Shown: piece after piece, positions 1,400-17,809 of the stretch
How the letters are laid out: each line of letters begins with the position of its first letter
Numbering within the stretch: the stretch's first letter is position 1
Origin: an uncultured archaeon
Lineage (GTDB): Archaea; Asgardarchaeota; Thorarchaeia; Thorarchaeales; Thorarchaeaceae
Direction: 5' to 3'
Assembly: GCA_964354495.1 (NCBI GenBank)
Contig: CAYHAA010000013.1
Location: forward strand, 58,681 to 90,680
Length of the DNA: 32,000 nucleotides
Program-made: the position numbers and the translations under genes
The notes under the pieces: model-generated
The model's database searches: none
Seen by the model: only the letters and a program-made list of their open reading frames with translations
Told to the model about the DNA's origin: nothing

Positions 1400-3601
1400 C
1401 TAGAGCACCCCCATTGTTAGAAGGCCGATGATTATCAAAAGGCCAATGCCAAAGATTACCACACTTACGTAGTCATTGATTCGCCCAGTCTGTGTTTCAA
1501 GACCTATTTCCGAGGCCTCTACGCTCTTTGTTGAAACCCCCTCTGCAAAACCATCAATGACATGGTCATCAAACCAGCGTATCTTTCTTGAAAGGGTCTG
1601 TGCAGTTCCGGCAGACTTGAAGTCAATCCCATCGATTACGGGTTCATCCACCTGGACTCGCCATACATCTGCGAAGCGAAGGAGCTTGTTTACGAACCAG
1701 TAGTAGGACTCATTGATATACCATCGATGCTTCAGGAAGTTGTACAGCTTCCGGCGGACGCCATTCTCTGGAATAACGGAGTTCGGTCTCTCTGCATTCC
1801 TTATGTAAATCCAATACGCTGGTACACCACCAAGAAGGAGAGCACCAATAGTGATTGCGAATGGGATTACTCCTGGTAGTGTGAACTTGACAACAATCAT
1901 CTCTGTGAGTATCTCGACGAACAGTTCCATCGTCATGGGGCCTTCAGAAAGGACGATTGCCTGAATGAATGGAAACACAAGGAATGCAATGATTGTGAAT
2001 CCTGCAAGAATATACAGCGGAACCATCATTGCAGGACCGGGGTCATGAGGACTGCTGTGATGCTCTTCATCATGGTGTTCCGGTTCTTTACCATGAAAGA
2101 CTATTCCCATCAGCCTTATGCTGTAGAAGATGGTACTAGCTGCTGCAAACACTGCAAGACCAAACAACAGAATACCAAATGAATATTCAACTGCAAGCTC
2201 GTAGGTGTACTCAATGATGGAGTCCTTTGACCAGAAACCAGACATCGGTGGAATCCCTGCAAGTGCGAGCACACCAATCAGCATGACCCGATAAGTCCGA
2301 GGCATGCTCATTTTCAGACCGCCCATGTTGGACATATACTTCGTATGGACAGCATGGATGACTCCGCCCGCAGCAAGGAAGAGAAGGGCTTTGAAGGCAC
2401 CATGGGACACAACATGAAGCACGCCACTGAGATACGCCTGATCATAATGACCGCTCACTGCGAGAATTCCACCTGTGCCAATTGCCAGAATCATGTAGCC
2501 AAGCTGACTCAGGGTTGAGAAAGCGAGGACCTGTTTGAGTTCGTTGGACACCATACCCATTGTTGCTGTCATAAAGGCTGTAATCGCTCCGACGGTTGCA
2601 ACGATGATGAAGAATGAGATGGCCATCTCGATGCCGAATGTCTGGAGTGCTGCGAAGCCCGACTCGGTACCAGTTTCATGAGCATGAGTCGCAGTAGCAT
2701 CCACAATGGTAACCAAGAAACGAGCGGTGATGTACACACCAGCCTTCACCATGGTCGCGGCATGAATCAGTGCAGAAACAGCTGTCGGGCCGCTCATCGC
2801 CTCGGGGAGCCACACCTGGAGGGGAACCTGACCAGATTTTCCTATTGCACCCGCAAAGATGAGTATGAGTGCTGGGAGCAGGAGACCCCAGTTGCCCATC
2901 GTACCCCACCAATTGTTGATATTACTGGCGAGGTCTGTGAATAGAAAGGATCCGGTGAACGTGAAGAGTAGGAGAATGCCGCCCAGCATGAGAGCGTCGC
3001 CAATCCTAGTGACGATGAAAGCCTTCGTGCCGCAGTGAGTGTTATACTCGCCTTCTGTCTCGAATTGGAGCAATGGATTGCTCTGTTCATAACCCGTGGG
3101 GTCTTTTTCCGGTCTATTCCGTTTGTCATTCCAGAAACCGATGAGACCATAGCTGCACAATCCCATGATCTCCCATCCGATGAAAGCAATCAGTAGGGAA
3201 CCGCTTAGGACAAGTGTCAGCATTCCCCCTCCGAACAGGAGCATCAGGAAGAAGAATCTGTTTCTATCGCCTTCATTCGCCATGTACTCAGTACTATACA
3301 CATAGATGAGGAAACACAGTGTACTTGATAGAATGGCCATAATGACCGAGAGCGGGTCTAGGAGCATCTCGAAGGGAACATAGAGACCTGGGATATTGAT
3401 CCACTCATAGTGTGGCATGTGCTCTATGCCTAGGTCCCAAAGAAGAGACCAACACAACACCATAGTCATTCCCATCAAGATAGATGGCGTCCAATCACGG
3501 AGTCTTACACTGAATCTTCCCACGAGTGGCACCAACAATGATCCAGCCAGAGGGATGACGAGGATTAGGTAATAGGGTAGACCAAGTAACATCTGACTCA
3601 C
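1400..3601 (-). CDS. nuoL: Complex I-like subunit NuoL, long form; probable start ATG 3592 after a GAGGTGA SD
   Basis: FIGWEIMGLCSYGLIGFW, KAFIVTRIGD, GKSGQVPLQVWLPEAMSGPTAVSALIHAATMVKAGVY, STLSQLGYM, HGAFKALLFL, GFWSKDSI, and a C-terminal lateral helix ending QTGRINDY plus a final TM helix. Confidence 0.96.
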   Translation of the reverse strand: MSQMLLGLPYYLILVIPLAGSLLVPLVGRFSVRLRDWTPSILMGMTMVLCWSLLWDLGIEHMPHYEWINIPGLYVPFEMLLDPLSVIMAILSSTLCFLIYVYSTEYMANEGDRNRFFFLMLLFGGGMLTLVLSGSLLIAFIGWEIMGLCSYGLIGFWNDKRNRPEKDPTGYEQSNPLLQFETEGEYNTHCGTKAFIVTRIGDALMLGGILLLFTFTGSFLFTDLASNINNWWGTMGNWGLLLPALILIFAGAIGKSGQVPLQVWLPEAMSGPTAVSALIHAATMVKAGVYITARFLVTIVDATATHAHETGTESGFAALQTFGIEMAISFFIIVATVGAITAFMTATMGMVSNELKQVLAFSTLSQLGYMILAIGTGGILAVSGHYDQAYLSGVLHVVSHGAFKALLFLAAGGVIHAVHTKYMSNMGGLKMSMPRTYRVMLIGVLALAGIPPMSGFWSKDSIIEYTYELAVEYSFGILLFGLAVFAAASTIFYSIRLMGIVFHGKEPEHHDEEHHSSPHDPGPAMMVPLYILAGFTIIAFLVFPFIQAIVLSEGPMTMELFVEILTEMIVVKFTLPGVIPFAITIGALLLGGVPAYWIYIRNAERPNSVIPENGVRRKLYNFLKHRWYINESYYWFVNKLLRFADVWRVQVDEPVIDGIDFKSAGTAQTLSRKIRWFDDHVIDGFAEGVSTKSVEASEIGLETQTGRINDYVSVVIFGIGLLIIIGLLTMGVL

Positions 3602-3602
3602 C

Positions 3603-5123
3603 TCATGGACCGAAAGCGTCTGTGAACGCCGGGACTATGACATCCAGTGCCAAGCTCGGGAATATTCCAAAGATTACAATGAGAATGCCAAGGATGACCA
3701 TCGGGATGGTCATTGATCGAGGACTCTCCTTCACGTCCGCAAGAGACTCGGGATGTGGACCCAAGAACACACGCCAGAAGAATCGCAACATATAGGCAGC
3801 ACTCAGAATCGAACTTGATGCTGCAATGATGGCTAGTAGCAGAAAACTCATATTGAGCTCCGCACCGGGGATTGGAATCGCCGCTTGGAAGCCTCCCAGG
3901 AACATCATCCATTCGCTTGCAAAACCTGAGAGGGGAGGACTGCCAGCGATGCTCATCATTCCTATCGCTGCCGCGAATGCAGTGATTGGCATCTTGTTGG
4001 AGAGACCACCCATCTTCTTGATATCGCGGAGACCTGTCTGATGGATGACAGCTCCAGCGACCATGAACAGCAGTCCCTTGGAGAATGCATGATTGATGAG
4101 ATGGAACATCCCACCAGACACTCCTGCAATTGTTGCAGTGCCCAGAGCAAAGAGTACGTATCCCATCTGCGAAACAGACGAATATGCAAGGAGCCTCTTG
4201 ATGTCCACCTGGGCGAGAGCCATGAAACCGCCGTAGAAGATTGTGATAACACCAAGTGTTGCTACGTAGAGAGCAAACTGACTTGCAACCACATCCAGAG
4301 TTAACGTGCCAAATCGCACGAGCGCGTAGGCGCCTGTCTCAATCATTGCACCGGATAGGAGAACTGAGATTGGAGTAGGTGCCTCTGCATGAACCGGTGG
4401 AAGCCACCAATGGATTGGGAATACTGCCATCTTGACCAAGAACCCGGCAGCAAGTAGTATGAAGATAATCTTGAAGATCAAGTCCCCAGTAGCTCCAATG
4501 TTCGCAAGTACAAAAGAACCACCACCGTTGGCGTACAGTAGTCCGAATCCAATAAGGATACACACTGCACCGGACTGGGTATAGAGCCAGAACTTGAGAG
4601 CTGTGCGCTTTCGAGTCTCTGGAAGTCCCCAGAATAGGATGAGGAAATAGCTGGGGACAAGCATGATTTCCCAGGCAATGAAGAATTCTATCAGGTTAGT
4701 TGCAAGCGTCACCCAAATCATGCCCATGATGAAGAACAACTGGTTGGCGAAGAAGGTCGGTTTGTTCTCCGTGTGTTCAGTGTATCCTACTGCATACACC
4801 ACTGATAGGAATCCGAGCACAACGACTGCGAGGGTGATGGGGAATGCTACGGGGTCAAGGAAGAGCCCGAACGGTTCCAGAAGCGTAGACCAGACGTATG
4901 TCTCCTCTGAGAAGCCTTCCGTCAAAAGCTCGTAGAAGGGCTGTATCATTAGAGCAGAGCCTACAAGAGAAACGCCAGTGGCAATCTTTCCCGCGCTATT
5001 ACCGATTCTGTCCTTGAAGACGTAGATGAGAAGTGCTCCTATGAACATGACAGCTAGAGAGAGTGCCATGAAGGGGAATTCAGAGAGGAAGGTCTGCATT
5101 ACCTGAACCTCCTTCCACGCCAC
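3603..5123 (-). CDS. nuoM: Complex I-like antiporter subunit NuoM, first copy; probable start ATG 5099 overlapping the nuoI TAA, after a GGAGGT SD
   Basis: FFIAWEIMLVPSYFLILFWG, ALKFWLYTQSG, FLVKMAVFPIHWWLPPVHAEAPT, KRLLAYSSVSQMGY, INHAFSKGLLF, PPLSGFASE. Confidence 0.92.
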   Translation of the reverse strand: MAWKEVQVMQTFLSEFPFMALSLAVMFIGALLIYVFKDRIGNSAGKIATGVSLVGSALMIQPFYELLTEGFSEETYVWSTLLEPFGLFLDPVAFPITLAVVVLGFLSVVYAVGYTEHTENKPTFFANQLFFIMGMIWVTLATNLIEFFIAWEIMLVPSYFLILFWGLPETRKRTALKFWLYTQSGAVCILIGFGLLYANGGGSFVLANIGATGDLIFKIIFILLAAGFLVKMAVFPIHWWLPPVHAEAPTPISVLLSGAMIETGAYALVRFGTLTLDVVASQFALYVATLGVITIFYGGFMALAQVDIKRLLAYSSVSQMGYVLFALGTATIAGVSGGMFHLINHAFSKGLLFMVAGAVIHQTGLRDIKKMGGLSNKMPITAFAAAIGMMSIAGSPPLSGFASEWMMFLGGFQAAIPIPGAELNMSFLLLAIIAASSSILSAAYMLRFFWRVFLGPHPESLADVKESPRSMTIPMVILGILIVIFGIFPSLALDVIVPAFTDAFGP

Positions 5124-5530
5124 TCTAACGGTTTCCTCTCTAGGGTTGTGATCTTATCGGGCCCGTAGATCAGGTCTCTTCTGTCGCCCTCACTAATGTC
5201 GACGACTGGAGTGTGGAATAGTGCATTGAATCGACAGGCCTCAACACAGTGCCCACAGAAGATGCAGCGAGTGTAGTCAAAGTAGAGGGCTGCATCTTTC
5301 TCGTACATTCTATCGTCCTTATCCATTCGTATCGCAACGACTGGACATGACCGAACACACTGCGCGCATGCTGTGCAATTCTGTCGGACATGGATGTGCC
5401 TTCCACGCGTCCTCTCTGGATAGATTCTGTCCTCAAATGGGTAGAAGTAGGTGAAGGGTCTCATGAAGACCTGCCTGAATGTGTGTTTCAGAATCTTGAA
5501 GATGTCACCCAGTACGCTGAAGAAACCCAT
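5099..5530 (-). CDS. nuoI: Complex I-like subunit NuoI, 2x[4Fe-4S]
   Basis: YPFEDRIYPERTRGRH, CTACAQCVRSCP, CIFCGHCVEAC; operon position. Confidence 0.95.
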   Translation of the reverse strand: MGFFSVLGDIFKILKHTFRQVFMRPFTYFYPFEDRIYPERTRGRHIHVRQNCTACAQCVRSCPVVAIRMDKDDRMYEKDAALYFDYTRCIFCGHCVEACRFNALFHTPVVDISEGDRRDLIYGPDKITTLERKPLEWRGRRFR

Positions 5531-5533
5531 TGT

Positions 5534-6700
5534 TTATGGACCTCCTAAGGGTAGCAATGCTGCCAGTCCAGGAAGATAGACTATCGCGAGCATTGCAAAT
5601 ATGACATTCAGTAGCGCAAGAGGAAGCAGATACCTCCAACAGTAGTGAACAATCTGATCTTGCCTAAGTCGTTGGAATGACGAACTGACAAGAACGAAGA
5701 AGAAGAAGGTGATGATGAACTTGATAATGAAGTTCACTGCACCAGGGAGGAAGGGCAGACCAACAGGCCCTCCCAAAAAGAGAGCGACGATTATTGCGGA
5801 GTAGAGCATCTGCTCTGCAAACTCTGCAAAGTAAGTGAGAGTGAAGTAGATACCAGTAAACTCAGTCCTCCAGCCAAAGATTATCTCAGAGTCTGCGACG
5901 GGTGCGTCAAAGGGGAACACACCAACTGATGCAATGGCGGCAATTAGGAATGTTGCAAGGTTAACAGGCAATACAACTGCAAACCAGACAGAAGTCTGTG
6001 CTTGGGCGATGCCCATGAGACTCAGAGAACCCGCAAGCATGGCAGGTCCGGCAGAAGAAACAATCATTGGAATCTCTGCAGCGAATTGATTGTTTGCCGC
6101 TCGGAATCCTCCTATGAGCGAGTACTTGCAGCCGCTGACCCAACCTGCAAGCAATGATACAACAGGAACCGCTGTCAGAAAGGCAAACACCAGGACAAGA
6201 CTCACAGAGAGGTCTGAAATATACCAGAAGTCAAAGTCCCAAGGTATGAAACAGAAAGGCAATAGTACAACCACAAGAAGGAGACAGGGTAGGAATCTGA
6301 ACATCCAGCGTTTTGCATTATCAGGGATGATAGTCTCCTTTGCTATGAGCTTGATAGCATCAGCAAACAACTGAAGTCCACCATACTTGCCGATATGAAG
6401 TGGTCCTCGTCGGTCCTGAATGCGACCCCAGAGTTTTCGTGTGAACCACACCGCCCATATGAGGGTGAGAACGACAAAGATGAGACCCGGAAACAAGACA
6501 GCTCGAAACAAGAACATGAAGTTCGCTGGTGAGAACACCATTGCCCAGAGCCATTCGACGATGCCCCAGGCCCAGTAGAAGACACCCAGGATGAGATTGA
6601 TTATCCATTGCAGTACGCCATAGATCCAATCGGGAATCCCCGCAAGCCAGGTAAAGAAATCGAACTGCAACATCACACCTCCATTCATCGGTCCCACCAT
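5534..6700 (-). CDS. nuoH: Complex I-like subunit NuoH; probable start ATG 6673 after a GGAGGTG SD
   Basis: RKLWGRIQDRRGP, GGLQLFADAIKLIAKE, PFDAPVADSEIIFGWRTEFTG, FQRLRQDQ; polytopic membrane protein. Confidence 0.95.
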   Translation of the reverse strand: MVGPMNGGVMLQFDFFTWLAGIPDWIYGVLQWIINLILGVFYWAWGIVEWLWAMVFSPANFMFLFRAVLFPGLIFVVLTLIWAVWFTRKLWGRIQDRRGPLHIGKYGGLQLFADAIKLIAKETIIPDNAKRWMFRFLPCLLLVVVLLPFCFIPWDFDFWYISDLSVSLVLVFAFLTAVPVVSLLAGWVSGCKYSLIGGFRAANNQFAAEIPMIVSSAGPAMLAGSLSLMGIAQAQTSVWFAVVLPVNLATFLIAAIASVGVFPFDAPVADSEIIFGWRTEFTGIYFTLTYFAEFAEQMLYSAIIVALFLGGPVGLPFLPGAVNFIIKFIITFFFFVLVSSSFQRLRQDQIVHYCWRYLLPLALLNVIFAMLAIVYLPGLAALLPLGGP

Positions 6701-7821
6701 CCAGGATACGGGTCCAAGCTTCCGAATATCACAATGAAGTCTGCAAACTTCGCGCCAGGGACTAAGTCCTTCAAGGCGTAGTAAGATGCAAAACAGGGTC
6801 CACGTATCTTTGCGCGATATGCACTCTGTGCCTTATCTTGAGTCTTGAGCCACAGTGATGTGATGCCTCGTGTTCCTTCTACGCGACCATATGCCTCTCC
6901 TGCAGGAAGTCTGTTCACTTTGGCACGAGCTTTGGGATCGATAATAGGACCTTCGGGTATCTGTGGTAATAGCTGCTTAATGATCTCTACAGAGGTCTCT
7001 GCCTCCTTGAATCTTTGCTCCATCCTGTCCAGAGCATCACTCTCTCCGGGATGATCTGGATTCTCAGTTATGGGTACTTCCCAATCACACATATTGTAGG
7101 CAAGATTCGGGTCGGGAGCATCTTTCCTGAGGTCCATAGGGATTCCGCATGCCTTAATCGGAGGCCCGCTCAGTCCCCATTTGAGACCCTGTCTTGCAGT
7201 GTATTGCCCTATGCCCTTGGTTCTCGCTCTGAAAGTAGGACTTCCCATCTGCATATCTCGGAACTTGGGCAGTCTGTCCTCAAACCTCTTGACGGCTCTA
7301 TTGATTTGTTTCAAGACCTTCTCATTAAAGTCGAACCTTGTTCCACCAGGAGTTGAGAACGATACAGTGTGTCGCGAACCTGTTAACTCTTCAAAGGCAT
7401 CAAGGGTATACTCTCGGTCGACCCAAGGCCAGAGAGCCATTGTAAAGAATCCAAGCTCTGCATTGAACTGTCCCCACCAGAATTGTATACTGTGCAGACG
7501 GGACAGCTCCATCATGATGGTCCTCATGACCTTCGCTCGTTCTGGCACCTCAAGCTCTGCAATCTTCTCAACTGCAGCAATAAAGGGATACTCAGCAAGA
7601 AATGCTTCAAGCATGCACATTCTTTCCATAACCAGGGATCCTTGCCTGAAGGTCCTGTACTCGAGGACCTTCTCTGCAGAACGGTGAAAGTACCCGGCAT
7701 TTGGGTCACATTTGACAATGTAGTCGCCGACCAAGGTCAGTTTTGTCGCCCATCCATGAGCAGAAACATGTTGGGGTCCGAACCAGACGTCTATGGCCTC
7801 ATCAAGAATGTTAGGGCTCAC
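6685..7821 (-). CDS. nuoD: Complex I-like subunit NuoD (no NiFe ligands)
   Basis: WFGPQHVSAHG, GYFHRSAEK, TGSRH...PGG, GEAYGRVEGTRG, YRAKIRGP, C-terminal SLDPYPGWWDR; neither hydrogenase CxxC pair is present. Confidence 0.93.
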   Translation of the reverse strand: MSPNILDEAIDVWFGPQHVSAHGWATKLTLVGDYIVKCDPNAGYFHRSAEKVLEYRTFRQGSLVMERMCMLEAFLAEYPFIAAVEKIAELEVPERAKVMRTIMMELSRLHSIQFWWGQFNAELGFFTMALWPWVDREYTLDAFEELTGSRHTVSFSTPGGTRFDFNEKVLKQINRAVKRFEDRLPKFRDMQMGSPTFRARTKGIGQYTARQGLKWGLSGPPIKACGIPMDLRKDAPDPNLAYNMCDWEVPITENPDHPGESDALDRMEQRFKEAETSVEIIKQLLPQIPEGPIIDPKARAKVNRLPAGEAYGRVEGTRGITSLWLKTQDKAQSAYRAKIRGPCFASYYALKDLVPGAKFADFIVIFGSLDPYPGWWDR

Positions 7822-8366
7822 TGGTCTGCCCCTCCGGTTTTTGTCGGTGTTTTTGGTGGAGTGAGGCCTGTTTTATCCAAGCGGCTTCTGTCTGTCTGGA
7901 ATCTCTTGCGAAGAGGAAATGCGCCCGCCAGTTCATCCGGCAGAAGGAGCAGTCGAGGATCAGGATGACTCTTGAATTCAATCCCGAACATCTCTCGTGT
8001 TTCACGTTCGTGCCATTCAAAGCCGGGGAAGATGTCGCAGGTACTCTCGATCTCAGGTCTCTCCCCTTCCAGCGACACTCTTAGCTGAAGCAGCATCCGA
8101 TTTGAGTGAGACCAAATGATGTAGATGAGCTCGTATTTGTCGTTTTCAAGGTCGATTCCAAAGAGTGACTCAGGAAGAGCATCATGCACTTCTTCATCAA
8201 TCATCGTCACGACCTGTCGAATCTTATTGGCAGGCACCAGGAGCTCGACCTGATTCGCGCCTAAAAGCCTTGAATTAACATCAGGATGCTTGTTGATGAG
8301 TTTTCTCGCGAGCGTTGAAGCATCAATGGTGGAGGGTTGCGACAATTCATCATCCCTCCATCTCAA
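7818..8366 (-). CDS. nuoC: Complex I-like subunit NuoC; probable start TTG 8345 after a GGAGGG SD
   Basis: IFPGFEWHERETREMFGIEFKSHPDPRLLLLP...FPLRKRF; stop overlaps the nuoD GTG start. Confidence 0.94.
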   Translation of the reverse strand: MRWRDDELSQPSTIDASTLARKLINKHPDVNSRLLGANQVELLVPANKIRQVVTMIDEEVHDALPESLFGIDLENDKYELIYIIWSHSNRMLLQLRVSLEGERPEIESTCDIFPGFEWHERETREMFGIEFKSHPDPRLLLLPDELAGAFPLRKRFQTDRSRLDKTGLTPPKTPTKTGGADQ

Positions 8367-8658
8367 TTGGCTTGCCTAAGTCAACCGAATGATATCGACG
8401 GTTATACATCAACATCAGGACCAGTGCAAGTGCAGTATGTGCAGCAGAGACAGAGATGACAAGCATGATTAGACCCTGACCAGTGAAGTTGAATATCGGA
8501 TTGTAAAGAGAGATGGCAACAAGGGCGATATTCGCTCCATTGGCCATTATCTCAGCACCTATCAGGATTCTAATGAGGTTCCTCTTCACCATCATCCCGT
8601 ATCCACCCAAACCTATCATCATAAAGGAGAGAACCAAATACCAAGTGAGCGGGATCAT
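8350..8658 (-). CDS. nuoK: Complex I-like subunit NuoK
   Basis: 102 aa, 3 TM helices; KRNLIRILIGAEIMANGANIALVA, GQGLIMLVISVSAA. Confidence 0.93.
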   Translation of the reverse strand: MIPLTWYLVLSFMMIGLGGYGMMVKRNLIRILIGAEIMANGANIALVAISLYNPIFNFTGQGLIMLVISVSAAHTALALVLMLMYNRRYHSVDLGKPIEMEG

Positions 8659-9302
8659 CAGGCATCAACCTCCTTTGATTCATCGATAGTTCGCACATCG
8701 TCAACGATGGTTCCCTCACCTTCGGTAGAGCCTGCCTCTCCTCCTGAAGCTCCAATAACAACTCCGAGTTGTTCGGCCTTGTCGATTTTCAGAAGAGCGA
8801 TTGCACCCACAAGAGCTGTGAGGATGATCAGGGCGACCATCTGCACGTAGATACCATTCTCGAACCACAACCAGCGCGCAAGTTCATTCAGATTTTGCGA
8901 GATACTGACGAATGCCTCGTTGAACGACTCAGCCCATGGGAAGATAATCGCAAGAAAGCCAGTAAGTACTGTTACAACTGCTGAAATGAGAAGACCAATA
9001 TGACGAACTCTAGGGGACGCGAATTTCTCTAGAGTCGAGTCTTGGGCTCTTGGTAATATGAGAACTGCAAAGATAATCAAAGCGCTGATTCCGCCGGTGT
9101 ACACGGCAATCTGCATTCCAGCAATGAAGGGCGCTTCAAGGAGAAGGAAGAAACCAGCAACAAAGGATGCCATAAAACCAAAGAAGAATGCGGCATAGAC
9201 AATCTCCTTATGCTCCAAGGCCAAATATGCAAGCACGAGGACCATGCCTGCCAAGATTAGGAACTCGATCTGCTCAAGCAATGCAGGATCAAAACCTTGC
9301 AT
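8658..9302 (-). CDS. nuoJ: Complex I-like subunit NuoJ
   Basis: IVYAAFF, LLLEAPFIAGMQIAVYTGGI, ILTALVGAIALL. Confidence 0.93.
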   Translation of the reverse strand: MQGFDPALLEQIEFLILAGMVLVLAYLALEHKEIVYAAFFFGFMASFVAGFFLLLEAPFIAGMQIAVYTGGISALIIFAVLILPRAQDSTLEKFASPRVRHIGLLISAVVTVLTGFLAIIFPWAESFNEAFVSISQNLNELARWLWFENGIYVQMVALIILTALVGAIALLKIDKAEQLGVVIGASGGEAGSTEGEGTIVDDVRTIDESKEVDA

Positions 9303-9304
9303 CT

Positions 9305-9802
9305 CTATCGACCTCCCGCAGCCGACTGCTCTTGCTCTCTCTCAGCCTTCATCTTCCTGTATAGCTCAACAGTCTCTCTCCCATCGAGGAATGTGTGTGG
9401 GATCATCTTCAAGGAAAAACCAATTCCGCCCATGATTATGAAAATGAAGAGGATGACCTGCCATACAGCCTCGTATTTCGTAGCGTCAGCCCATAGAATG
9501 GTCGAAGAAGAAAGGAGCCAGAGAAATGCGCCCATCACGTCGACAACTACGAAGAGGACTGTGTATACGAAGTAATTGTACGGATAAGAAATGCGCGAGG
9601 TGCCTATTGGTTCCTCACCACATTCGTAGGTCGAGGTCTTCTCGGAGTTCTGGAGTACATGAGGTCGTAGCACCCAAGATGCTAGTAGCATTAGAATGAC
9701 GAGAACTATTGCAAGTAGCGCCCAGACTATGACAGGGAAGAAATCCAAGAACAATCTGCTGGTCTGTATCATTCTTTGAAACCATCCTCTTGAGAGACTC
9801 AA
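9305..9802 (-). CDS. nuoA: Complex I-like subunit NuoA; start uncertain (TTG 9802 or ATG 9772)
   Basis: EKTSTYECGEEPIG loop, YFVYTVLFVVVD, three TM helices; first gene of the operon. Confidence 0.92.
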   Translation of the reverse strand: MSLSRGWFQRMIQTSRLFLDFFPVIVWALLAIVLVILMLLASWVLRPHVLQNSEKTSTYECGEEPIGTSRISYPYNYFVYTVLFVVVDVMGAFLWLLSSSTILWADATKYEAVWQVILFIFIIMGGIGFSLKMIPHTFLDGRETVELYRKMKAEREQEQSAAGGR

Positions 9803-9891: not shown

Positions 9892-9912
9892 GGAAAGCAG
9901 CATGATAAAAAC
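9892..9912 (-). promoter_or_regulatory. Upstream element of the nuo operon, GTTTTTATCATGCTGCTTTCC, containing a TATA-like TTTTTAT
   Basis: Plus strand reads GGAAAGCAGCATGATAAAAAC; 19/21 identical to 12886-12906; about 90 nt upstream of the nuoA ORF start. Confidence 0.6.
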
Positions 9913-9990: not shown

Positions 9991-10356
9991 GTGATTCATT
10001 TGACTCGTGCCGAAGAAGGAAAATTCTTCTATTATCTATCGCTCTTCATGGGAATGTCGCTTCTTGGAGTCTACATGTGGATAATAATGAGTGCAGCACT
10101 GGCTCCGCAGTACGTGTTCTTCCATCTAATCCTCTTCATAAGCGGGATTCTACTCATTGCCTCGGCGTTCGGATTTATCGTTGCTGATACCCGATCTAGT
10201 AGAGTAGCGCTGACAATGGTTTCTGGTGTTTTTGGTGGCATTCATGCGTATCTCATCTTCGTTCTGTTTGAGTTTCTCACGAATGTCATCCTGTTCGCTC
10301 TGATGGCCCTTGGACTCATGCTAGCATTTGCTGCGTTCAATTGGATTCATGAATAG
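9991..10356 (+). CDS. Hypothetical 4-TM membrane protein
   Basis: 121-aa hydrophobic ORF with about four TM segments; TTATATA at ~9937-9943 upstream; converges on the next gene. Confidence 0.75.
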   Translation: MIHLTRAEEGKFFYYLSLFMGMSLLGVYMWIIMSAALAPQYVFFHLILFISGILLIASAFGFIVADTRSSRVALTMVSGVFGGIHAYLIFVLFEFLTNVILFALMALGLMLAFAAFNWIHE

Positions 10357-10366
10357 AGCAAAATCC

Positions 10367-10900
10367 CTACTCATTTGGACCAGTAGATGTAGGATCAATA
10401 GCATCAGCAGGTTTCTCGGGTTTTGTTTCAGTCTTAGGTGCCGCTTCTTCCGCAGGTTTTGGCGCACCACCATAATGGAGTGACCTTACATCCAACATGC
10501 CTGGAGAGTGACTCTCTTCGCGAGTATGCATCACCGAGAGACCTCCAGCAGTCAGTACTGAACCTCCAAGGCCCCAGGCCGAGAGATACAGTGTAGTCCC
10601 AACTGCAGGGAGAGCATTCACAAATTCATCAACAAAGATAACGAAGAAGAATCCAACAACAATCGATAGTGCCATCATTAGGCTCTTTCCTTTACCTCTC
10701 GCAGGTCGCAAATACCCAACTAGCAGGAAGATCATCAATAGGGAAATCCCGCTTAGCAGAGCAAAGGCGCTTCCAATGACCAGCACCGATTCCGGCATCA
10801 GAAAGCCAAGATAGATGAAATTGAAGATGAACGATGACAAAATGACTATGCCTAGCCAGAGCATGCAAAACGGGTCGCTATCTTGTCGAATCGACATCAC
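10367..10900 (-). CDS. Hypothetical 4-TM membrane protein with a Pro/Ala/Glu/Lys-rich tail, coupled to the FAD-NuoB fusion gene
   Basis: Start overlaps the fusion's TGA (GTGATG at 10895-10900); four hydrophobic segments; tail APKPAEEAAPKTETKPEKPA. Confidence 0.8.
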   Translation of the reverse strand: MMSIRQDSDPFCMLWLGIVILSSFIFNFIYLGFLMPESVLVIGSAFALLSGISLLMIFLLVGYLRPARGKGKSLMMALSIVVGFFFVIFVDEFVNALPAVGTTLYLSAWGLGGSVLTAGGLSVMHTREESHSPGMLDVRSLHYGGAPKPAEEAAPKTETKPEKPADAIDPTSTGPNE

Positions 10901-12837
10901 TGTATCATCCCCATCGCATCCTGGTTCTCATATCTCCTTTGCCAGTGAGTCGTGCCAGCCCGTATCTTATTCTGAAGAATCAGATGTGCTCGAATGAAAT
11001 CTGCTGGCTTCGGAGGACATCCAGGCAGGTAGACGTCGACAGGTACTACCTTGTCAGGCGGTGTCATCAGGCTGTATCCCTCCCAGAAGAGGCCTCCTGA
11101 AGCAACGCATTGACCAAAGGCAATCACATATTTGGGCTCAGGCATCTGCTCGTAAATCCTCCTGAGCCGCGGTGCCATCTTCTTGGTGAGCGAACCCGAG
11201 ATCCACAGAACGTCGGTCTGTCTCGGACCAAACAGGGGTAGCATGCCAAATCGCTCAAAGTCCCATCGAGGAGCTATTCCTGCAGCACCATCCACCATGC
11301 AACACCCAATACCATACTGCATTGGCCAGGGACTATATGCCCTTCCCCATCTGAGTACCCACTTCAGCGGCGGTACATTCTGCAACCATTTCAGCAAAAT
11401 GGGAGCAATCCGACCCCAACCGTTTCTGAACAGATCGAAGAAGATCCACATGAAGTATTTCCCTATTCTCAAAATAAATGGAAGCCAGTAGGCGAATATC
11501 TTCCCGGGATTCGAGATCTCGTTCCTGTCCCATTGGAGTTTCGCTGCTCGAATTCGGGACAGTCGTTCCTTTCCAAAGTATTGATACGCGTAGTTTGCAA
11601 ACCAAATTCCTGTGGAGTGCACATGCCCTCCGTGACGCTGTGCAATTTTGAATATGACAAAGCTCTGTGACCACGAGAGCATGTAGAAGTGCCTTCGCTC
11701 ATCTTCAAGGAAGTAGCCCATCATAGTTACTCCGGTCTTTGAGGTGACGTAGCCGTCGATTCCAGCTCTCGCAGAGGCTTGTTCAAACTGGAAGTCATCA
11801 AGAATTGCAACGAGATTCTCGAGAGGGGCAAAAGCTTGACCGACTACTAGGGTTGGCCCTCTCTTCTTAATCTTCATTGGATAGTAGCGTAGCTGCCATT
11901 CATGTTCTGCAAAATCATCATCATAGATGCGCCCTCGATACAGTTCAGTGACTTCGCGGACAACTCCTAACCCCTCTTCAATCTCTTCCTCGTTGCCCTC
12001 ATACGCAATCATTAACGAACAATGATTGGCAGGTATCGGGAATGGCTTCTTGCCCTCCCAACTGGCCTTTTTGAGGTCAGTATACTTTGACTCTTCGAAT
12101 AATATCGTGTATGGGAGTGGGCCATCTTCGAGTATTTTCTCAATTGCAAGGACCATTTGGTAGTTTTCCTCAAAACTGGAAACAATTACCTTCATCGGTG
12201 TGAGAGGTTTGATCTTAAGAGTGGCTTTGGTGATGATACCCAGAATTCCCTCAGTGTCACAGAAGAGGCCAAAATCCTTTGTCTTGACTGTTTTTCCAGT
12301 TGGCAGAACCACTTCGAGCTCGACTATGTTCTCATTGATCTTCCCGTACTTCAGCGAACCAATGCCATCGCCGCCCTGGGCAATCCAGCCGCCCACAGTC
12401 GCTGAGATGCCAGATGATGGATAGCATCGTATATCCAGACCCTTCCTGTTCAACGCAAACTGAAGATTTGCCCAAGAGATTCCTGGTTCAACCGTGACGG
12501 TGAGATTCTCACTCTCAACTTCAAGAATCCTGTCCATTCGACGCATATCAACAATGATTCCTCCTTTTCGGGGTATAGCGCCGCCATATCCTGAGGTTCC
12601 TGCCGCTCTGGGCACAAGGGGGATTTTGTGTTTTCGCGCAATCTCATAGAGCGCCTGAACCTCTTCAGGAGTCAAGGGTTGAACAAGGGCATCGGGTTTT
12701 GTGTTCATGAGCCAACCAACCTGCTTCGGAAGAGAACCAACATCTTGTCCAAACAGAATCAGCTCATGCTTCGCAGTAATCAAGCGGTCTCCAAAAATTT
12801 TGCCTAGTTCTTCAATCAGCTTTTGATTAAGGACCAT
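10897..12837 (-). CDS. Fusion protein: FAD-linked oxidoreductase (GlcD/D-LDH, FAD_binding_4 + FAD-oxidase_C type) plus NuoB
   Basis: N-terminal part: PDALVQP, LVPRAAGTSGYGGAIP, IIVDMRRMDRILEV, VTVEPGI, SATVGGWIAQGGDGIGSLKYG, TEGILGIITKATLK, ending ISNPGKIF (~11494). C-terminal part: RWGRAYSPWP, GIGCC, PRQTDVLWISGSLTKKMAPRLRRIYEQMPEPKYVIAFGQCVASGG, VPVDVYLPGCPP. Single uninterrupted 646-aa frame. Confidence 0.93.
   Translation of the reverse strand: MVLNQKLIEELGKIFGDRLITAKHELILFGQDVGSLPKQVGWLMNTKPDALVQPLTPEEVQALYEIARKHKIPLVPRAAGTSGYGGAIPRKGGIIVDMRRMDRILEVESENLTVTVEPGISWANLQFALNRKGLDIRCYPSSGISATVGGWIAQGGDGIGSLKYGKINENIVELEVVLPTGKTVKTKDFGLFCDTEGILGIITKATLKIKPLTPMKVIVSSFEENYQMVLAIEKILEDGPLPYTILFEESKYTDLKKASWEGKKPFPIPANHCSLMIAYEGNEEEIEEGLGVVREVTELYRGRIYDDDFAEHEWQLRYYPMKIKKRGPTLVVGQAFAPLENLVAILDDFQFEQASARAGIDGYVTSKTGVTMMGYFLEDERRHFYMLSWSQSFVIFKIAQRHGGHVHSTGIWFANYAYQYFGKERLSRIRAAKLQWDRNEISNPGKIFAYWLPFILRIGKYFMWIFFDLFRNGWGRIAPILLKWLQNVPPLKWVLRWGRAYSPWPMQYGIGCCMVDGAAGIAPRWDFERFGMLPLFGPRQTDVLWISGSLTKKMAPRLRRIYEQMPEPKYVIAFGQCVASGGLFWEGYSLMTPPDKVVPVDVYLPGCPPKPADFIRAHLILQNKIRAGTTHWQRRYENQDAMGMIQ
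10960..11370 (-). other. nuoB: NuoB domain (N2 [4Fe-4S] subunit) within the fusion gene
   Basis: Tandem Cys-Cys at 11299-11304 (C512/C513), GQC..SGG and PGCPP together give all four N2 ligands; the YEQMPEPKYVIA signature is present. Confidence 0.93.
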
Positions 12838-12885: not shown

Positions 12886-12906
12886 GGAAAGCAGGAAGAT
12901 AAAAAC
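12886..12906 (-). promoter_or_regulatory. Upstream element of the FAD-NuoB fusion gene, GTTTTTATCTTCCTGCTTTCC
   Basis: Plus strand reads GGAAAGCAGGAAGATAAAAAC; 19/21 identical to 9892-9912; 49-69 nt upstream of ATG 12837. Confidence 0.6.
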
Positions 12907-14379: not shown

Positions 14380-15432
14380 TCAGCTGTTGAGAGATGCTGA
14401 AGCTGCTGCTTTCGCTTTGCGTTCTGATTGATAGTAGAACACAAGGGACATCGCAAGACATAGAGCGCCCCCGACAAAGACGTAGAGAAGAGGTGATGCC
14501 AATCCAATCAACAAGTAAGACAGTGATAGAAAGAGCCCCGTGAACAAGTGATTCGTGACCGTCGCCGCACATGCGGGTAACATCTGAAGCGATTGATCAT
14601 AGTGTGCTAGTACGTGCTTGCTGGCCATCACTGCGATAGGCACAGTAGAAAGCCCAACTACTGTATACCAGTTTGTCAGGCCGAAAAAGATGGGTAGGAG
14701 TATTGAGAGATATAGGGCCACCATCAAGACGACGTACCCTTTCGAGGCACGTTTTCGGCCGAGACGCACTACTGCAGTCAGTTTTCCAACAGACTTGTCA
14801 GCCTCATAGTCGGGAAACTCATTGATATATAGAACAGCTGTGATTAGAATCGCGACTGGAATAGATGGGAAGACTGCTTCCCAAGCAAGCACCTGAGTTT
14901 GAACGAAGTAGGCTCCGAGAGTCATAAGAACGCCAAAATTGAGCCCAATGAAGACCTCCCCAATGCCTCTATTCACTAATCTAAAAGGCGGAGCAGTATA
15001 GAAGAAACCCGAGCACACACCAATGACTCCAAGGATTAGGACTTCTATGCCTCTTGTGTAGGCAAGATACAGGCCAATGCCGCCCCCAAGAGAGAAGAAT
15101 ACCATTGACTCTAGGAAGACCTCTCCCGGAGACATCAGCCCCCTTTGGATCATCCTGCTTCCCCCGGTGAAAGGACGCACATACTCCACATTGATATCGT
15201 CAGTCCCACTTCTGTGGTCGAAATAGTCGTTGGCAACATTAGACCCGATGTGGATGAACACACCTGCAGCTAGGGTCAAAAGAAAGATGTCGAGAAGGAA
15301 TGTGCCTGTTGATGCCCAAGCCACGCACGTTCCAATGACTACAGGTACAATGGCACCCGTCAGGAAGGGGGCACGCATTTCGGCCAGCCAGGTTCTGACT
15401 CTCGAAGGTCTTACATCCATCAAATCAATCAC
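14380..15432 (-). CDS. menA: 1,4-dihydroxy-2-naphthoate polyprenyltransferase (MenA/UbiA family)
   Basis: NVANDYFDHRSGTDD, RPFTGGSRMIQ, FFYTAPPFRL..RGIGE, YINEFPDYEADKSVGKLT..VRLG. Confidence 0.88.
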   Translation of the reverse strand: MIDLMDVRPSRVRTWLAEMRAPFLTGAIVPVVIGTCVAWASTGTFLLDIFLLTLAAGVFIHIGSNVANDYFDHRSGTDDINVEYVRPFTGGSRMIQRGLMSPGEVFLESMVFFSLGGGIGLYLAYTRGIEVLILGVIGVCSGFFYTAPPFRLVNRGIGEVFIGLNFGVLMTLGAYFVQTQVLAWEAVFPSIPVAILITAVLYINEFPDYEADKSVGKLTAVVRLGRKRASKGYVVLMVALYLSILLPIFFGLTNWYTVVGLSTVPIAVMASKHVLAHYDQSLQMLPACAATVTNHLFTGLFLSLSYLLIGLASPLLYVFVGGALCLAMSLVFYYQSERKAKAAASASLNS

Positions 15433-15554
15433 GACTTATGAACTTGAAATCCTTTTGAGTTTAAGAAAAGACTTACTATAGGATGCGATTGATGCAAAAA
15501 CGACATTGCTTTAAGGCGCATACAGTCTGAACCAAAAGTTGAGGAGAATATCTG

Positions 15555-16592
15555 ATGTCAGAACGCCCATCCGTCCGCCATGAGTATGGACTAAACACAT
15601 CAGAACCTTGGCCATCTGATACTTCGTGTTTTCTAGAGAATGAGAAGATAAGGACAAGAATCAACCTCATTAATGAAGAGATCAAACGTTGCCTATTGGA
15701 TGAAGATGGAGAACCGAAACAACTCTATGAATCAGTCCGTAGCCTAGTCCTTGCAGGTGGCAAGAGACTAAGGTCCCTTTTGCTGATACTGAGTTGCGAA
15801 GCAGTGGGTGGGGCTCTCGTGGACGCATTGCCTTTTGCAGTCGCCACAGAGTTCATACAGACCGCTAGCTTGATCCATGATGATATCATTGATGAAGATG
15901 ATTTGCGTCGTGGAGTTGAAACCATGCACAAGAAGTATGGAGAGAAGATGGCAATAATCTCCGGAGACCTACTTGTCGGCCTGGCAATCAAGTTGATTGG
16001 AGAGAGAGCAACTCCCCAACTTCTATCCAGTGTTGCCACAGCTGGTATCCGAATGTGTGAAGGCGAAGCTGCCGACCTCTTGATGAGTCAAAACAGAGCA
16101 CATTCTTACACGACAAAGGCAGCGCTTGATATTATTAGAATGAAGACAGTCGCGTTCATGACATACGCTGCGAAGGTAGGAGCGGTTCTGGGGCATGCGA
16201 CTGAGGAGCAATCGGAAGTTCTAACCAAATATGCCGAAGAACTTGGTTACTCATTCCAAATTCGTGACGATATACTCGATATAATCGCCACTCAAAATGA
16301 AACAGGAGAGACAGGTTTGTCCGATTTGAAAGGTAATGTGAGTAATTTCGTTCTTGCGCATGCCATAGAGAGCTGTTCTCCGAAAGGAAGGAAGCAACTC
16401 ATTCAGAATTTGGACGAGGGTGATGTAGACTCTGCCTTTGAACATATCAAGGAAATGAAGTCTATTGAATACTCCACTGAGACTGCCAAGGAGTTCGTGG
16501 AATCTGCCAAGGACAGAATTCGCGGATCCAACTTCTCAAATGAAGAGTTGCTGATGCTCCTCGCAGATTTCGCTGTGAAACGGCAATACTAA
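15555..16592 (+). CDS. Trans-polyprenyl diphosphate synthase, probably longer than C20; true start may be downstream
   Basis: GGKRLR, first Asp-rich motif TASLIHDDIIDEDDLRRG, GEAADL, KT, second motif FQIRDDILD. Confidence 0.93.
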   Translation: MSERPSVRHEYGLNTSEPWPSDTSCFLENEKIRTRINLINEEIKRCLLDEDGEPKQLYESVRSLVLAGGKRLRSLLLILSCEAVGGALVDALPFAVATEFIQTASLIHDDIIDEDDLRRGVETMHKKYGEKMAIISGDLLVGLAIKLIGERATPQLLSSVATAGIRMCEGEAADLLMSQNRAHSYTTKAALDIIRMKTVAFMTYAAKVGAVLGHATEEQSEVLTKYAEELGYSFQIRDDILDIIATQNETGETGLSDLKGNVSNFVLAHAIESCSPKGRKQLIQNLDEGDVDSAFEHIKEMKSIEYSTETAKEFVESAKDRIRGSNFSNEELLMLLADFAVKRQY

Positions 16593-16603
16593 TTCAGCTC
16601 ACA

Positions 16604-17809
16604 CTACATGAACTGGTTCAGCAGCCTGACAAAGGTCTTCGCCGCCATATCCACAGGAAGTGGCAGGCGGCACCGAATAAGTGGCTCAAGAAATCTGACT
16701 CCAGCTAGCCGCATACATATGTCAGTAACCGCGTCTGATGGCATAACTAGATCTGCAACTCTAAGGACTCTTAGTGCAGTCACTAACTCATGACCAAACT
16801 CAGCTCTCCATAGTTCTTCGTAGGTCGACAGAGGTTCGTTCTCTGTCAGGTACCTAACAACAGATTCGCCTGCGATACGGCCTCCGCATAATGCAGTCGG
16901 AATTCCTCCACCATTTGATGCCATCACATGCCCAGCTGCATCCCCGACTAGCAATGCATTTTGATGCCACGTTTGGTGAAGGGGACCGCCCATAGGGATT
17001 ATTGCACCTATTCTTCGAATGACCTTCGCGCTCTCGACCCTGTGTGCTAGGAGAGAAAACACAAACCGTTCTAGATACTTCTTGAGAGGGGTTGCATCAC
17101 TACCGACACTTCGTCTCATACCAAAACCGATGTTGGCAAGCCCTTCACCCCTAGGAATGACCCAAGCATAACCGCCTGGTGCTATCCTCTCACCAAAATA
17201 CATCTCTACCACAGACGGTTCCACATCGAAATCATTCATTACATATTGGAGAGCTGGGCTGAGGTCTGACTCGGGGTGAATGAATCTCGGTCCCATCGAG
17301 CGAGCCACAATGGATCTAGGTCCATCGGCTCCTATGATAGCCTTAGCAGTCATTTTGTGTGTCGTACTCTGAGTTCTGACAGTCAGTTCATTCTTGCCTT
17401 GTCGTTTCAATACCGTTGAATGAAGCTGAAGCTCAGCACCCGCATCTATGGCGTTCTGCGCAAGTTGTTTGTCCAATCTCGACCGGTCAACAATGTTGGC
17501 TTCAAAGGGAAACTCAAATGTACTGCCATGTGGTGAAATCAGGCGAATGAATTTCGTCCTGTTCGTGATGAATTCCCTTGGCACATCGACAGCTCTAGGC
17601 ATCATTTTGGAGCGGGGAAACAGTCTTCGTGTTTCTGACTGCGTGGGTATGATCTCGCCACACTGGACTGGCGTGCCCGCTATAGACCTTCGGTCTAGAA
17701 TGAGTGTTCGTAGATTGCTCCTAGCGACTACCTGAGCTGCAGAAGACCCTGCTGGTCCAGCTCCAACTACTGCAACATCATAAGTTTGACTCACGAGTAG
17801 CCACTCCAT
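16604..17809 (-). CDS. Geranylgeranyl/prenyl reductase family FAD oxidoreductase
   Basis: DVAVVGAGPAGS, PVQCGE, IIGADG..S, APGGYAWVIP, ANIGFG, LLVGDAAGHV...GGGI. Confidence 0.92.
   Translation of the reverse strand: MEWLLVSQTYDVAVVGAGPAGSSAAQVVARSNLRTLILDRRSIAGTPVQCGEIIPTQSETRRLFPRSKMMPRAVDVPREFITNRTKFIRLISPHGSTFEFPFEANIVDRSRLDKQLAQNAIDAGAELQLHSTVLKRQGKNELTVRTQSTTHKMTAKAIIGADGPRSIVARSMGPRFIHPESDLSPALQYVMNDFDVEPSVVEMYFGERIAPGGYAWVIPRGEGLANIGFGMRRSVGSDATPLKKYLERFVFSLLAHRVESAKVIRRIGAIIPMGGPLHQTWHQNALLVGDAAGHVMASNGGGIPTALCGGRIAGESVVRYLTENEPLSTYEELWRAEFGHELVTALRVLRVADLVMPSDAVTDICMRLAGVRFLEPLIRCRLPLPVDMAAKTFVRLLNQFM

Follow-up and report, generated by a model that had tools for sequence, protein, structure and literature searches.

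A flavoprotein fused to the NuoB subunit of a complex I homolog without NuoEFG in Thorarchaeia

Complex I homologs of 11 subunits that lack the NuoEFG head occur in anaerobes and archaea, and how these "headless" complexes are fed with electrons and drained of them is a long-standing question. Here we analyze a stretch of 32,000 nucleotides (hereafter the window) from an uncultured archaeon of the family Thorarchaeaceae (GenBank assembly GCA_964354495.1, contig CAYHAA010000013.1, positions 58,681 to 90,680 of the forward strand), in which a single gene on the minus strand (P0001, 10897-12837) joins a flavin adenine dinucleotide (FAD)-binding oxidoreductase domain to NuoB, the subunit that holds cluster N2. 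The enzyme is a new variant of complex I: in Thorarchaeia evolution has written the partner into the polypeptide, and a flavo-iron-sulfur module is placed permanently on the N2 subunit throughout the class. Asgard archaea are the closest prokaryotic relatives of eukaryotes, and the fusion bears on energy conservation in Thorarchaeia. Together with a CCG-domain protein encoded next to it and with the nuo operon, it offers a defined and expressible target for studying how redox modules that do not use NADH are coupled.

Several described systems share features with this locus. The Fpo-like complex of Methanomassiliicoccales is, like that of Thorarchaeia, an 11-subunit complex I homolog without NuoEFG or FpoF and is thought to be driven by ferredoxin; a soluble HdrD-type CCG protein is proposed there to pick up electrons right at this complex, giving a ferredoxin:heterodisulfide oxidoreductase (PMC7374477). 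In that system HdrD is unlinked and there is no flavoprotein, whereas in Thorarchaeia an HdrD-like protein would be recruited through the FAD domain that is fused to NuoB, and Thorarchaeia have neither methanogenesis nor a known heterodisulfide. The fusion also provides physical evidence bearing on the proposed coupling between headless complexes and HdrD. The Fpo and Fqo complexes with FpoF or FqoF also combine an archaeal complex I core with a non-NADH flavo-iron-sulfur module, but FpoF belongs to the FrhB family and is a separate subunit that docks at the NuoI end.

The module itself resembles GlcDEF, D-lactate dehydrogenases and YdiJ-like proteins of about 1000 amino acids, in all of which FAD_binding_4 and FAD-oxidase_C are paired with 2x[4Fe-4S] and two CCG domains. 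It differs from the GlcD/GlcF-type enzymes in that it has no His/His/Glu site, scores low against their equivalog models and runs on into NuoB at its C-terminus. Known NuoB fusions (NuoBC, NuoBCD, NuoAB and an Asgard NuoI-NuoB-NuoD) join complex I subunits to one another, whereas the thorarchaeial protein joins NuoB to an unrelated flavoenzyme. The 2M-type complex I, which Chadwick et al. are said to have defined in 2018 by an extra NuoM and a long NuoL, shares with Thorarchaeia the M-L-M-N gene order, the long NuoL (733 amino acids here) and the lack of NuoEFG; to our knowledge, no flavoprotein fusion has been described for it. Plant GLDH is likewise a flavoenzyme of the VAO superfamily that is physically bound to complex I, in assembly intermediates (PDB 7A24), but its attachment is non-covalent and on the membrane arm, and it acts as a mitochondrial assembly factor.

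The fusion gene and its distribution

The gene at 10897-12837 is one open reading frame of 646 amino acids that starts with ATG and has no internal stops, and its identity is supported by its translation, by three Pfam domains and by orthologs. FAD_binding_4 matches residues 48-186 (3.2e-41), FAD-oxidase_C residues 216-447 (7.3e-8) and Oxidored_q6 residues 524-617 (6.4e-23; PF01058 score 81.3 against a cut-off of 27). The C-terminal part also passes the NCBIfam cut-offs for NuoB (TIGR01957, nuoB_fam, 167.3 bits versus 142.7; NF005012, 175.5 versus 116). The N2 ligands are C512 and C513, which form the tandem CC typical of complex I, C577 and C607, and all four are invariant across 19 orthologs. 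A first-pass annotation of the window, made from the letters alone, had described one frame that joins a FAD oxidoreductase through a linker to a full NuoB with four N2 cysteines, and the Pfam and NCBIfam matches, the modeled linker and the cysteine positions confirm it, including the three Pfam families that it named.

Four segments can be distinguished in the protein. The first is a FAD domain of the VAO/D-lactate dehydrogenase fold (residues 1-447; 11497-12837), assigned from Pfam, profile-to-PDB alignment, AlphaFold2, Foldseek and conservation. It is followed by an aromatic amphipathic helix (residues 448-473; 11419-11496), which in the FAD protein family forms a C-terminal tail at the membrane surface, and by NuoB's own N-terminal helices (residues 474-503; 11329-11418), which align as homologs with the N-termini of the nearest stand-alone NuoBs. 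The NuoB core with the N2 ligands (residues 504-646 and the stop; 10897-11328) is defined by Pfam, NCBIfam and the cysteine positions. In the AlphaFold2 model of the fusion the mean predicted local distance difference test score (pLDDT) is 83.5, and residues 1-447 are confidently folded, with pLDDT mostly above 90.

The linker between the two enzymes (residues 448-503) is modeled as three helices at 451-472, 474-486 and 489-500. Its hydrophobic moment is the maximum of the protein, reaching 0.56-0.64 for the helix at 448-473, and it is rich in Lys and Arg and contains 26% Phe, Trp and Tyr, while its hydrophobicity stays below transmembrane grade. Among fused orthologs the linker is 83-84% identical (84% on average for residues 448-473), compared to 74% for the FAD domain. 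In the nearest stand-alone NuoBs, which are 63-66% identical, a homologous N-terminal helix precedes the WGRAYSPWP motif. According to this alignment the NuoB-derived part begins at about residue 474, so that only residues 448-473 are the tail of the FAD protein.

The FAD-NuoB fusion is a lineage-wide gene fusion in Thorarchaeia and not the product of chance or misassembly, since five independent sources (a protein cluster search, species genomes, Logan contigs, HMMER and a region-restricted search) agree on it. With one genome taken per species, 51 of the 87 Thorarchaeia species genomes carry a full-length, stop-free frame (73-96% identity, 12 genera), and several further copies end at contig edges yet still cross the junction. 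Among 5.8 billion proteins, the cluster search found all three domains together in 46 clusters, which are 71-90% identical and 644-667 amino acids long (almost always 646), and it gave no other FAD-plus-NuoB architecture. Nearly all of these clusters come from metagenome-assembled genomes of Thorarchaeota and are publicly annotated merely as "NuoB", so automatic annotation conceals the fusion. When 1.84 billion representatives were searched exhaustively with HMMER, matches over both domains were confined to one 50%-identity cluster. In the region-restricted search of long NuoB-containing proteins, only NuoBC, NuoAB and plant gene-model artefacts were found besides the fusion cluster.

Logan contigs from two different studies cross the junction without indels; a 9.4-kb contig at a depth of 40 covers the entire fusion gene, and a 1.9-kb contig from a sediment metagenome covers 10800-11982. 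One raw-read run (X23) contributed just three partial reads, which came from another organism. The continuity of the frame, on which the first-pass annotation depended, is thus seen in contigs and across genomes alike, and its remark that no characterised complex I has this domain architecture holds for the characterised enzymes and for the literature searched. The literature searched, which included an Asgard complex I survey, a catalogue of archaeal fusions and an HMM survey of complex I, gave no description of the fusion, and the fusion of NuoB to a flavoenzyme as a way of attaching a redox enzyme to a respiratory ion pump is apparently undescribed.

A promoter-like element of 21 nucleotides with a T-rich, TATA-like core lies 49 nucleotides upstream of the fusion start (12886-12906, minus strand), and a second copy, identical at 19 of 21 positions, lies upstream of nuoA (9892-9912, minus strand). 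These are the only two copies in the window, where none is expected by chance. The element was not found in the loci of relatives, which were searched with up to three mismatches in two cases (L005, L007) and for exact matches in the other fetched loci. Its presence before both units suggests that the fusion and nuoA are co-regulated in this genome. In one relative, a frame change at residue 435, within the FAD domain, splits the gene (G026:C5:93256-95186); this may be a sequencing error or mark a pseudogene.

The FAD domain and its HdrD/GlcF-like partner

The best Foldseek matches of the FAD domain are mouse D-lactate dehydrogenase (mLDHD, target TM 0.85), alkyl-DHAP synthase and LctD. Its FAD-binding motifs are intact and invariant in the orthologs. 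When the family profile was aligned to the PDB entry, the metal ligands H398, H405 and E442 of mouse LDHD fell on Y363, V370 and V406, and only a neighbouring histidine (H407) was kept; the His/His/Glu triad is absent from all fused orthologs and from the nearest relatives. Equivalog scores are far below their cut-offs (TIGR00387 glcD, 136.8 versus 567.9; NF008408, 99.7 versus 897; YdiJ, 85 versus 1350). Since the metal triad is missing, "GlcD/D-LDH" names the fold only, and judging from these alignments the FAD domain is not a canonical metal-dependent 2-hydroxyacid dehydrogenase. The family name given in the first-pass annotation therefore stands as far as the two Pfam domains and the D-lactate dehydrogenase fold go, but not for the metal triad or the equivalog scores. 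The same metal-site substitutions are found in the whole FAD subfamily, in stand-alone and Fe-S-fused members alike, which indicates a distinct active site rather than decay.

A gene for an HdrD/GlcF-like protein of 410 amino acids (P0123, 13042-14274, plus strand) lies head-to-head with the fusion gene, and its true start is likely the ATG at 13048. Pfam assigns to it a 2x[4Fe-4S] ferredoxin-like domain and two CCG domains, and its 18 cluster cysteines are all invariant. CCG orthologs are single-copy and 65-92% identical, usually lie head-to-head with the fusion at a distance of about 200 nucleotides, and have a genus distribution (g1-g12 and g14) identical to that of the FAD ortholog. The first-pass annotation had left this obligatory Fe-S/CCG partner out of its finding. 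Both parts share one chain in all 33 of the 33 examined relatives of about 1025 amino acids, which belong to a family found in bacteria as well as archaea; the FAD part spans about 1-460 and is 33-37% identical, and the CCG part spans about 500-885 and is 31% identical (2e-63).

When modeled together with FAD, the FAD domain and the CCG protein were predicted to form a complex, with ipSAE values of 0.91, 0.91 and 0.92 in three runs, while the best of three controls scored 0.00. In calibration, the mark was attained for 58 of 80 solved complexes and 2 of 110 mismatched pairs; this calibration is only rough here because custom genome-paired alignments were used and the FAD ligand was included. 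The partner has a pLDDT of 92, and the three runs share at least 95% of contacts. In the model, the ferredoxin-like domain of the partner (C20-C26, C87) docks on the FAD-binding loops at residues 79-81 and 142-145, and the family-invariant segments R317-P328 and D379-R381 of the FAD domain are interface residues rather than substrate residues. A heterodimer of the FAD domain and the HdrD/GlcF-like protein is thus strongly supported by the modeling, and the docking together with the cluster sites of the partner predicts a redox chain that runs from FAD through two [4Fe-4S] clusters to the CCG clusters.

Beyond the CCG gene, the region 14380-17809 encodes a MenA-like prenyltransferase (14380-15432, minus strand; TIGR00751, 123 bits versus 102), a polyprenyl synthase and a protein of the geranylgeranyl-reductase (GGR) family. 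Their synteny with the CCG/FAD pair holds whether or not the FAD protein is fused, even in a genus without the complex. An island of further FAD_binding_4, CCG, amine-oxidase and PNPOx-like genes adjoins the partner gene in a complete Thorarchaeia genome (CP070761.1, L005:1-9808). A family of FAD paralogs of 573 amino acids with hydrophobic C-terminal tails is common in Thorarchaeia.

The complex I operon and its relation to the module

The nuo operon lies downstream of the fusion on the same strand, with the nuoA start (9802) at a distance of 1.1 kb. It contains nuoA (9305-9802, Oxidored_q4), nuoJ (8658-9302, Oxidored_q3), nuoK (8350-8658, Oxidored_q2), nuoC (7818-8366, Complex1_30kDa), nuoD (6685-7821, Pfam and PDB alignments), nuoH (5534-6700, NADHdh) and nuoI (5099-5530, Pfam), followed by a first NuoM-like antiporter subunit of 506 amino acids (3603-5123; Pfam and TIGR01972, 309 bits), a long nuoL of 733 amino acids (1400-3601; Pfam and TIGR01974, 451 bits) and a second nuoM (2-1399, Pfam), which has 523 amino acids in full and runs off the window. 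All of these are on the minus strand. The operon continues past the left edge of the window with a fourth antiporter-like gene, a NuoN-like gene of 502 amino acids (G000:C13:57003-58511; L080:11004-12512), next to which is a gene for a Ras-family GTPase. The order is thus A-J-K-C-D-H-I-M-L-M-N with four antiporter-like subunits, and two NuoM genes flank the lengthened NuoL, as in the 2M type by gene order and lengths.

The operon has no nuoB. The genome (97.7% complete) has no member of the NuoE or NuoF families, and its two other Oxidored_q6 genes, which were considered as a second NuoB, encode the small subunits of group 3b and group 3c (Mvh) hydrogenases; the fusion is therefore the only NuoB of this genome. 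FpoF was considered as a hidden input. The one FrhB/FpoF-like gene, located elsewhere, scores 106 bits against an FpoF cut-off of 475, and its orthologs also occur in Thorarchaeia genera without this complex, so that it does not co-vary with the complex and was rejected. The first-pass annotation had noted an operon 1.1 kb downstream on the same strand without nuoB, and had proposed to check the genome for another nuoB, nuoEFG or fpoF; Pfam agrees with the former, the genome contains no stand-alone nuoB, nuoE or nuoF, and a flavoprotein is indeed built covalently into the sole NuoB of a complex I without NuoEFG.

NuoI has all eight cluster cysteines in two CxxCxxCxxxC motifs (52-62 and 89-99). 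NuoD lacks the NiFe ligand set and keeps the quinone-site histidine (H22, corresponding to Nqo4 H38 in Thermus numbering), and in an ungapped alignment to Yarrowia NUCM its quinone tyrosine (Thermus Tyr87) is replaced by M70. One relic NiFe cysteine, C69, remains in the motif ERMCMLEA (ERLCMLEA in L005), which is conserved in three Thorarchaeia genera. The best PDB match of NuoD is MbsL, a subunit of the sulfane reductase MBS.

Two small multi-transmembrane proteins are encoded between NuoB and NuoA and keep the same positions in three Thorarchaeia genera. P0122 (10367-10900, minus strand) has about four transmembrane helices and an acidic, Pro-rich tail, and its start overlaps the fusion stop; it has no family match, and a search for an Atlas lead gave none (best score 0.83). 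A membrane protein of 121 amino acids (9991-10356, plus strand) is conserved between the fusion unit and nuoA. As this gene lies on the opposite strand, the fusion forms a separate transcription unit. Both proteins are candidates for lineage-specific accessory subunits.

We then compared lineages in which module and complex occur apart. Genera g13, g15 and g16 and a second Thorarchaeia family are without the fusion and the CCG partner. The best NuoD match in one genome each of g15, g16 and g17 is 30-37% identical, which indicates that this complex is absent from these genomes too. In genus g14, an unfused FAD protein of 498-499 amino acids (57-58% identical) lies beside the CCG gene, menA, a polyprenyl synthase gene and a GGR gene. 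Neither of the two g14 genomes has a close NuoB match, and the one inspected for it has no nuo operon of this type, its only related complex being a true group-4 [NiFe] hydrogenase that brings a small subunit of its own. The g14 FAD protein ends in KW-x-L-x-x-x-PPLKW, which aligns to the NuoB-derived helix of the fusion. This short alignment suggests that g14 descends from a fused ancestor and that its NuoB core disappeared along with the complex.

The opposite situation is found in a genome of another Asgard class (G399), which again has a J-K-C-D-H-I-M-L-M-N operon, here accompanied by a divergent nuoA and encoding a NuoD of 50% identity. Its NuoB stands alone, is 65% identical and is located away from the operon, and G399 has no ortholog of the FAD protein. 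The patterns in G399 and g14 indicate that complex and module can each work without the other. What is specific to Thorarchaeia is the tethering, by the fusion, of two systems that are each able to stand alone. The nearest unfused NuoBs (L011:10001-10561, L013:4951-5942) are already displaced from nuo operons; one stands alone beside hypC/D/E/F, and the other, paired with nuoA, has a B12-radical-SAM gene and UbiA, GGR and polyprenyl synthase genes as neighbors.

Electron flow through the module

The N-terminus of Thermus Nqo6 is amphipathic and lies near the exit of the quinone chamber, which is formed by TM1, TM6 and AH1 of Nqo8 (bioRxiv 10.1101/572404). Since the tether in the fusion is the N-terminus of NuoB, near the membrane exit of this chamber, the flavo-iron-sulfur module would sit at the quinone/N2 end and not at the NuoI end. 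By analogy, the FAD domain would be anchored to the membrane surface next to where the quinone enters, on the N2 side of the chain, and would belong to a quinone-side module and not replace the NADH-oxidising head. The surface-seeking amphipathic linker and the start of the NuoB-derived part at about residue 474 support this placement. Flavoprotein substrates of this superfamily belong to couples near or above -200 mV, and menaquinone lies at about -75 mV. On thermodynamic grounds, so small a gap should not be able to drive a four-antiporter pump, and the attachment point and the thermodynamics both argue against an input head like NuoEFG.

Our tentative first choice is a self-contained ferredoxin:acceptor oxidoreductase, whose pump is driven by ferredoxin at NuoI and whose module drains electrons at the quinone side. 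Reduced ferredoxin would donate at NuoI and drive the pump, and electrons would pass along to N2. From N2 they would probably be transferred to a lipophilic carrier, perhaps a prenylated naphthoquinone-like compound, at the adjacent chamber exit, where the CCG end of the tethered module could take them over on the spot and hand them from the CCG clusters to FAD and on to a soluble acceptor. A precedent for a headless complex that hands electrons to an HdrD-type protein was proposed in Methanomassiliicoccales (PMC7374477).

Several observations weigh against this quinone-side drain. The canonical quinone-site pair His38/Tyr87 is broken in NuoD by the loss of the tyrosine. MqnA/D have no match in the genome and the best MenB match scores 147 bits against a cut-off of 343, so a conventional menaquinone carrier is not established. 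The AlphaFold2 monomer has an inter-domain geometry that is not interpretable and gives no usable distance between FAD and N2, and the ipSAE of the predicted complex carries the rough calibration given above. By score, the nearest characterised CCG systems are quinone donors (GlpC, LdhH, GlcF) and reductases (TfrB, HdrD) alike, and the many FAD/CCG paralogs per Thorarchaeia genome are more typical of catabolic dehydrogenases.

The same coupling run backwards, from substrate to FAD, CCG clusters and quinol, with ferredoxin reduced at the expense of the proton-motive force, is nearly as plausible. As a specific proposal, in which the FAD/CCG module oxidises an organic substrate, delivers the electrons to the N2 end directly or as quinol, and the four-antiporter complex spends an ion gradient on raising them to ferredoxin, to be used for reducing CO2 or forming H2, we regard it as possible but doubtful. 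The module's resemblance to substrate:quinone dehydrogenases, seen in the GlcDF, GlpC and LdhH matches, the many FAD/CCG paralogs beside the locus in relatives, and the additional antiporter subunit, which raises the H+/e- ratio, all fit reverse electron transport. Chadwick et al. reportedly proposed in 2018 that 2M-type complexes run in reverse, and no terminal oxidase is known for this group, which we also count in its favor. On the other hand, the metal triad of the 2-hydroxyacid dehydrogenases is missing, and reverse transport would require a separate source of the ion gradient.

In either direction the module might also be wired through its Fe-S clusters directly into the N2 end, which would make the enzyme a new class of energy-converting oxidoreductase between ferredoxin and a soluble substrate that works without free quinone and has its catalytic subunit joined covalently to NuoB. 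The replacement of the quinone tyrosine of NuoD by Met, the relic cysteine, the match to MbsL and the lack of MenB or MqnA/D leave room for such wiring, which we nevertheless consider rather unlikely.

According to the first-pass annotation, the flavoprotein is an electron-input module that couples a small-molecule redox reaction to quinone chemistry and ion pumping. Such a head would replace NuoEFG, be Fe-S-wired into N2 and drive quinone reduction and pumping by substrate oxidation. In its favor, no other flavoprotein is physically tied to the complex, NuoE and NuoF are missing from the genome, the FrhB/FpoF-like gene does not follow the complex in its distribution, and the predicted complex supports a relay from FAD to the 2x[4Fe-4S] domain. 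We judge this arrangement improbable all the same: NuoB is tethered by its membrane-proximal N-terminus, a long way from where electrons enter at NuoI, the metal triad is lost, substrate potentials are expected to be too near that of menaquinone for four to five pumping channels, the sister complex in G399 has no module, and g14 retains the module without this complex. The first-pass reading is thus supported in part: the covalent tie to the sole NuoB of a NuoEFG-less complex stands, and an electron-input module that couples substrate oxidation to pumping is not supported as proposed.

A purely structural, assembly or regulatory appendage, comparable to plant GLDH, would account for the loss of the canonical active-site metal ligands, and GLDH is among the PDB matches (7a24_z). 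This non-catalytic role is hard to reconcile with invariant FAD-binding motifs, a partner that retains all 18 cluster cysteines, invariant interface residues and metal-site substitutions that the whole subfamily shares as a distinct active site instead of decay, and we consider it highly improbable. The chance that the fusion is a misassembled or frameshifted join of two adjacent genes is negligible, because the 51 uninterrupted frames in 12 genera, the 46 independent protein clusters and the ungapped contigs of two studies stand against one split copy (G026) whose break is inside the FAD domain and not at the junction.

NuoB-containing frames of about 668 amino acids from other Asgard lineages were also considered as FAD fusions and were rejected, as they are NuoI-NuoB-NuoD fusions. 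These triple fusions of 666-668 amino acids (Fer4, Oxidored_q6 and Complex1_49kDa) lie beside NuoC in three Asgard genomes (G396, L014:5268-7274; G094, L015:960-2960; G374, L016:5003-7003). The one at L014 also adjoins an FrhB-like protein, a molybdopterin formate-dehydrogenase-like subunit and MvhD. They look like a soluble module derived from complex I. Another CCG-type redox enzyme of the genome that carries the window is a TfrA/TfrB-like pair of the thiol:fumarate-reductase type at G000:C3:19604-22262, whose TfrA scores 686 bits against a cut-off of 718.

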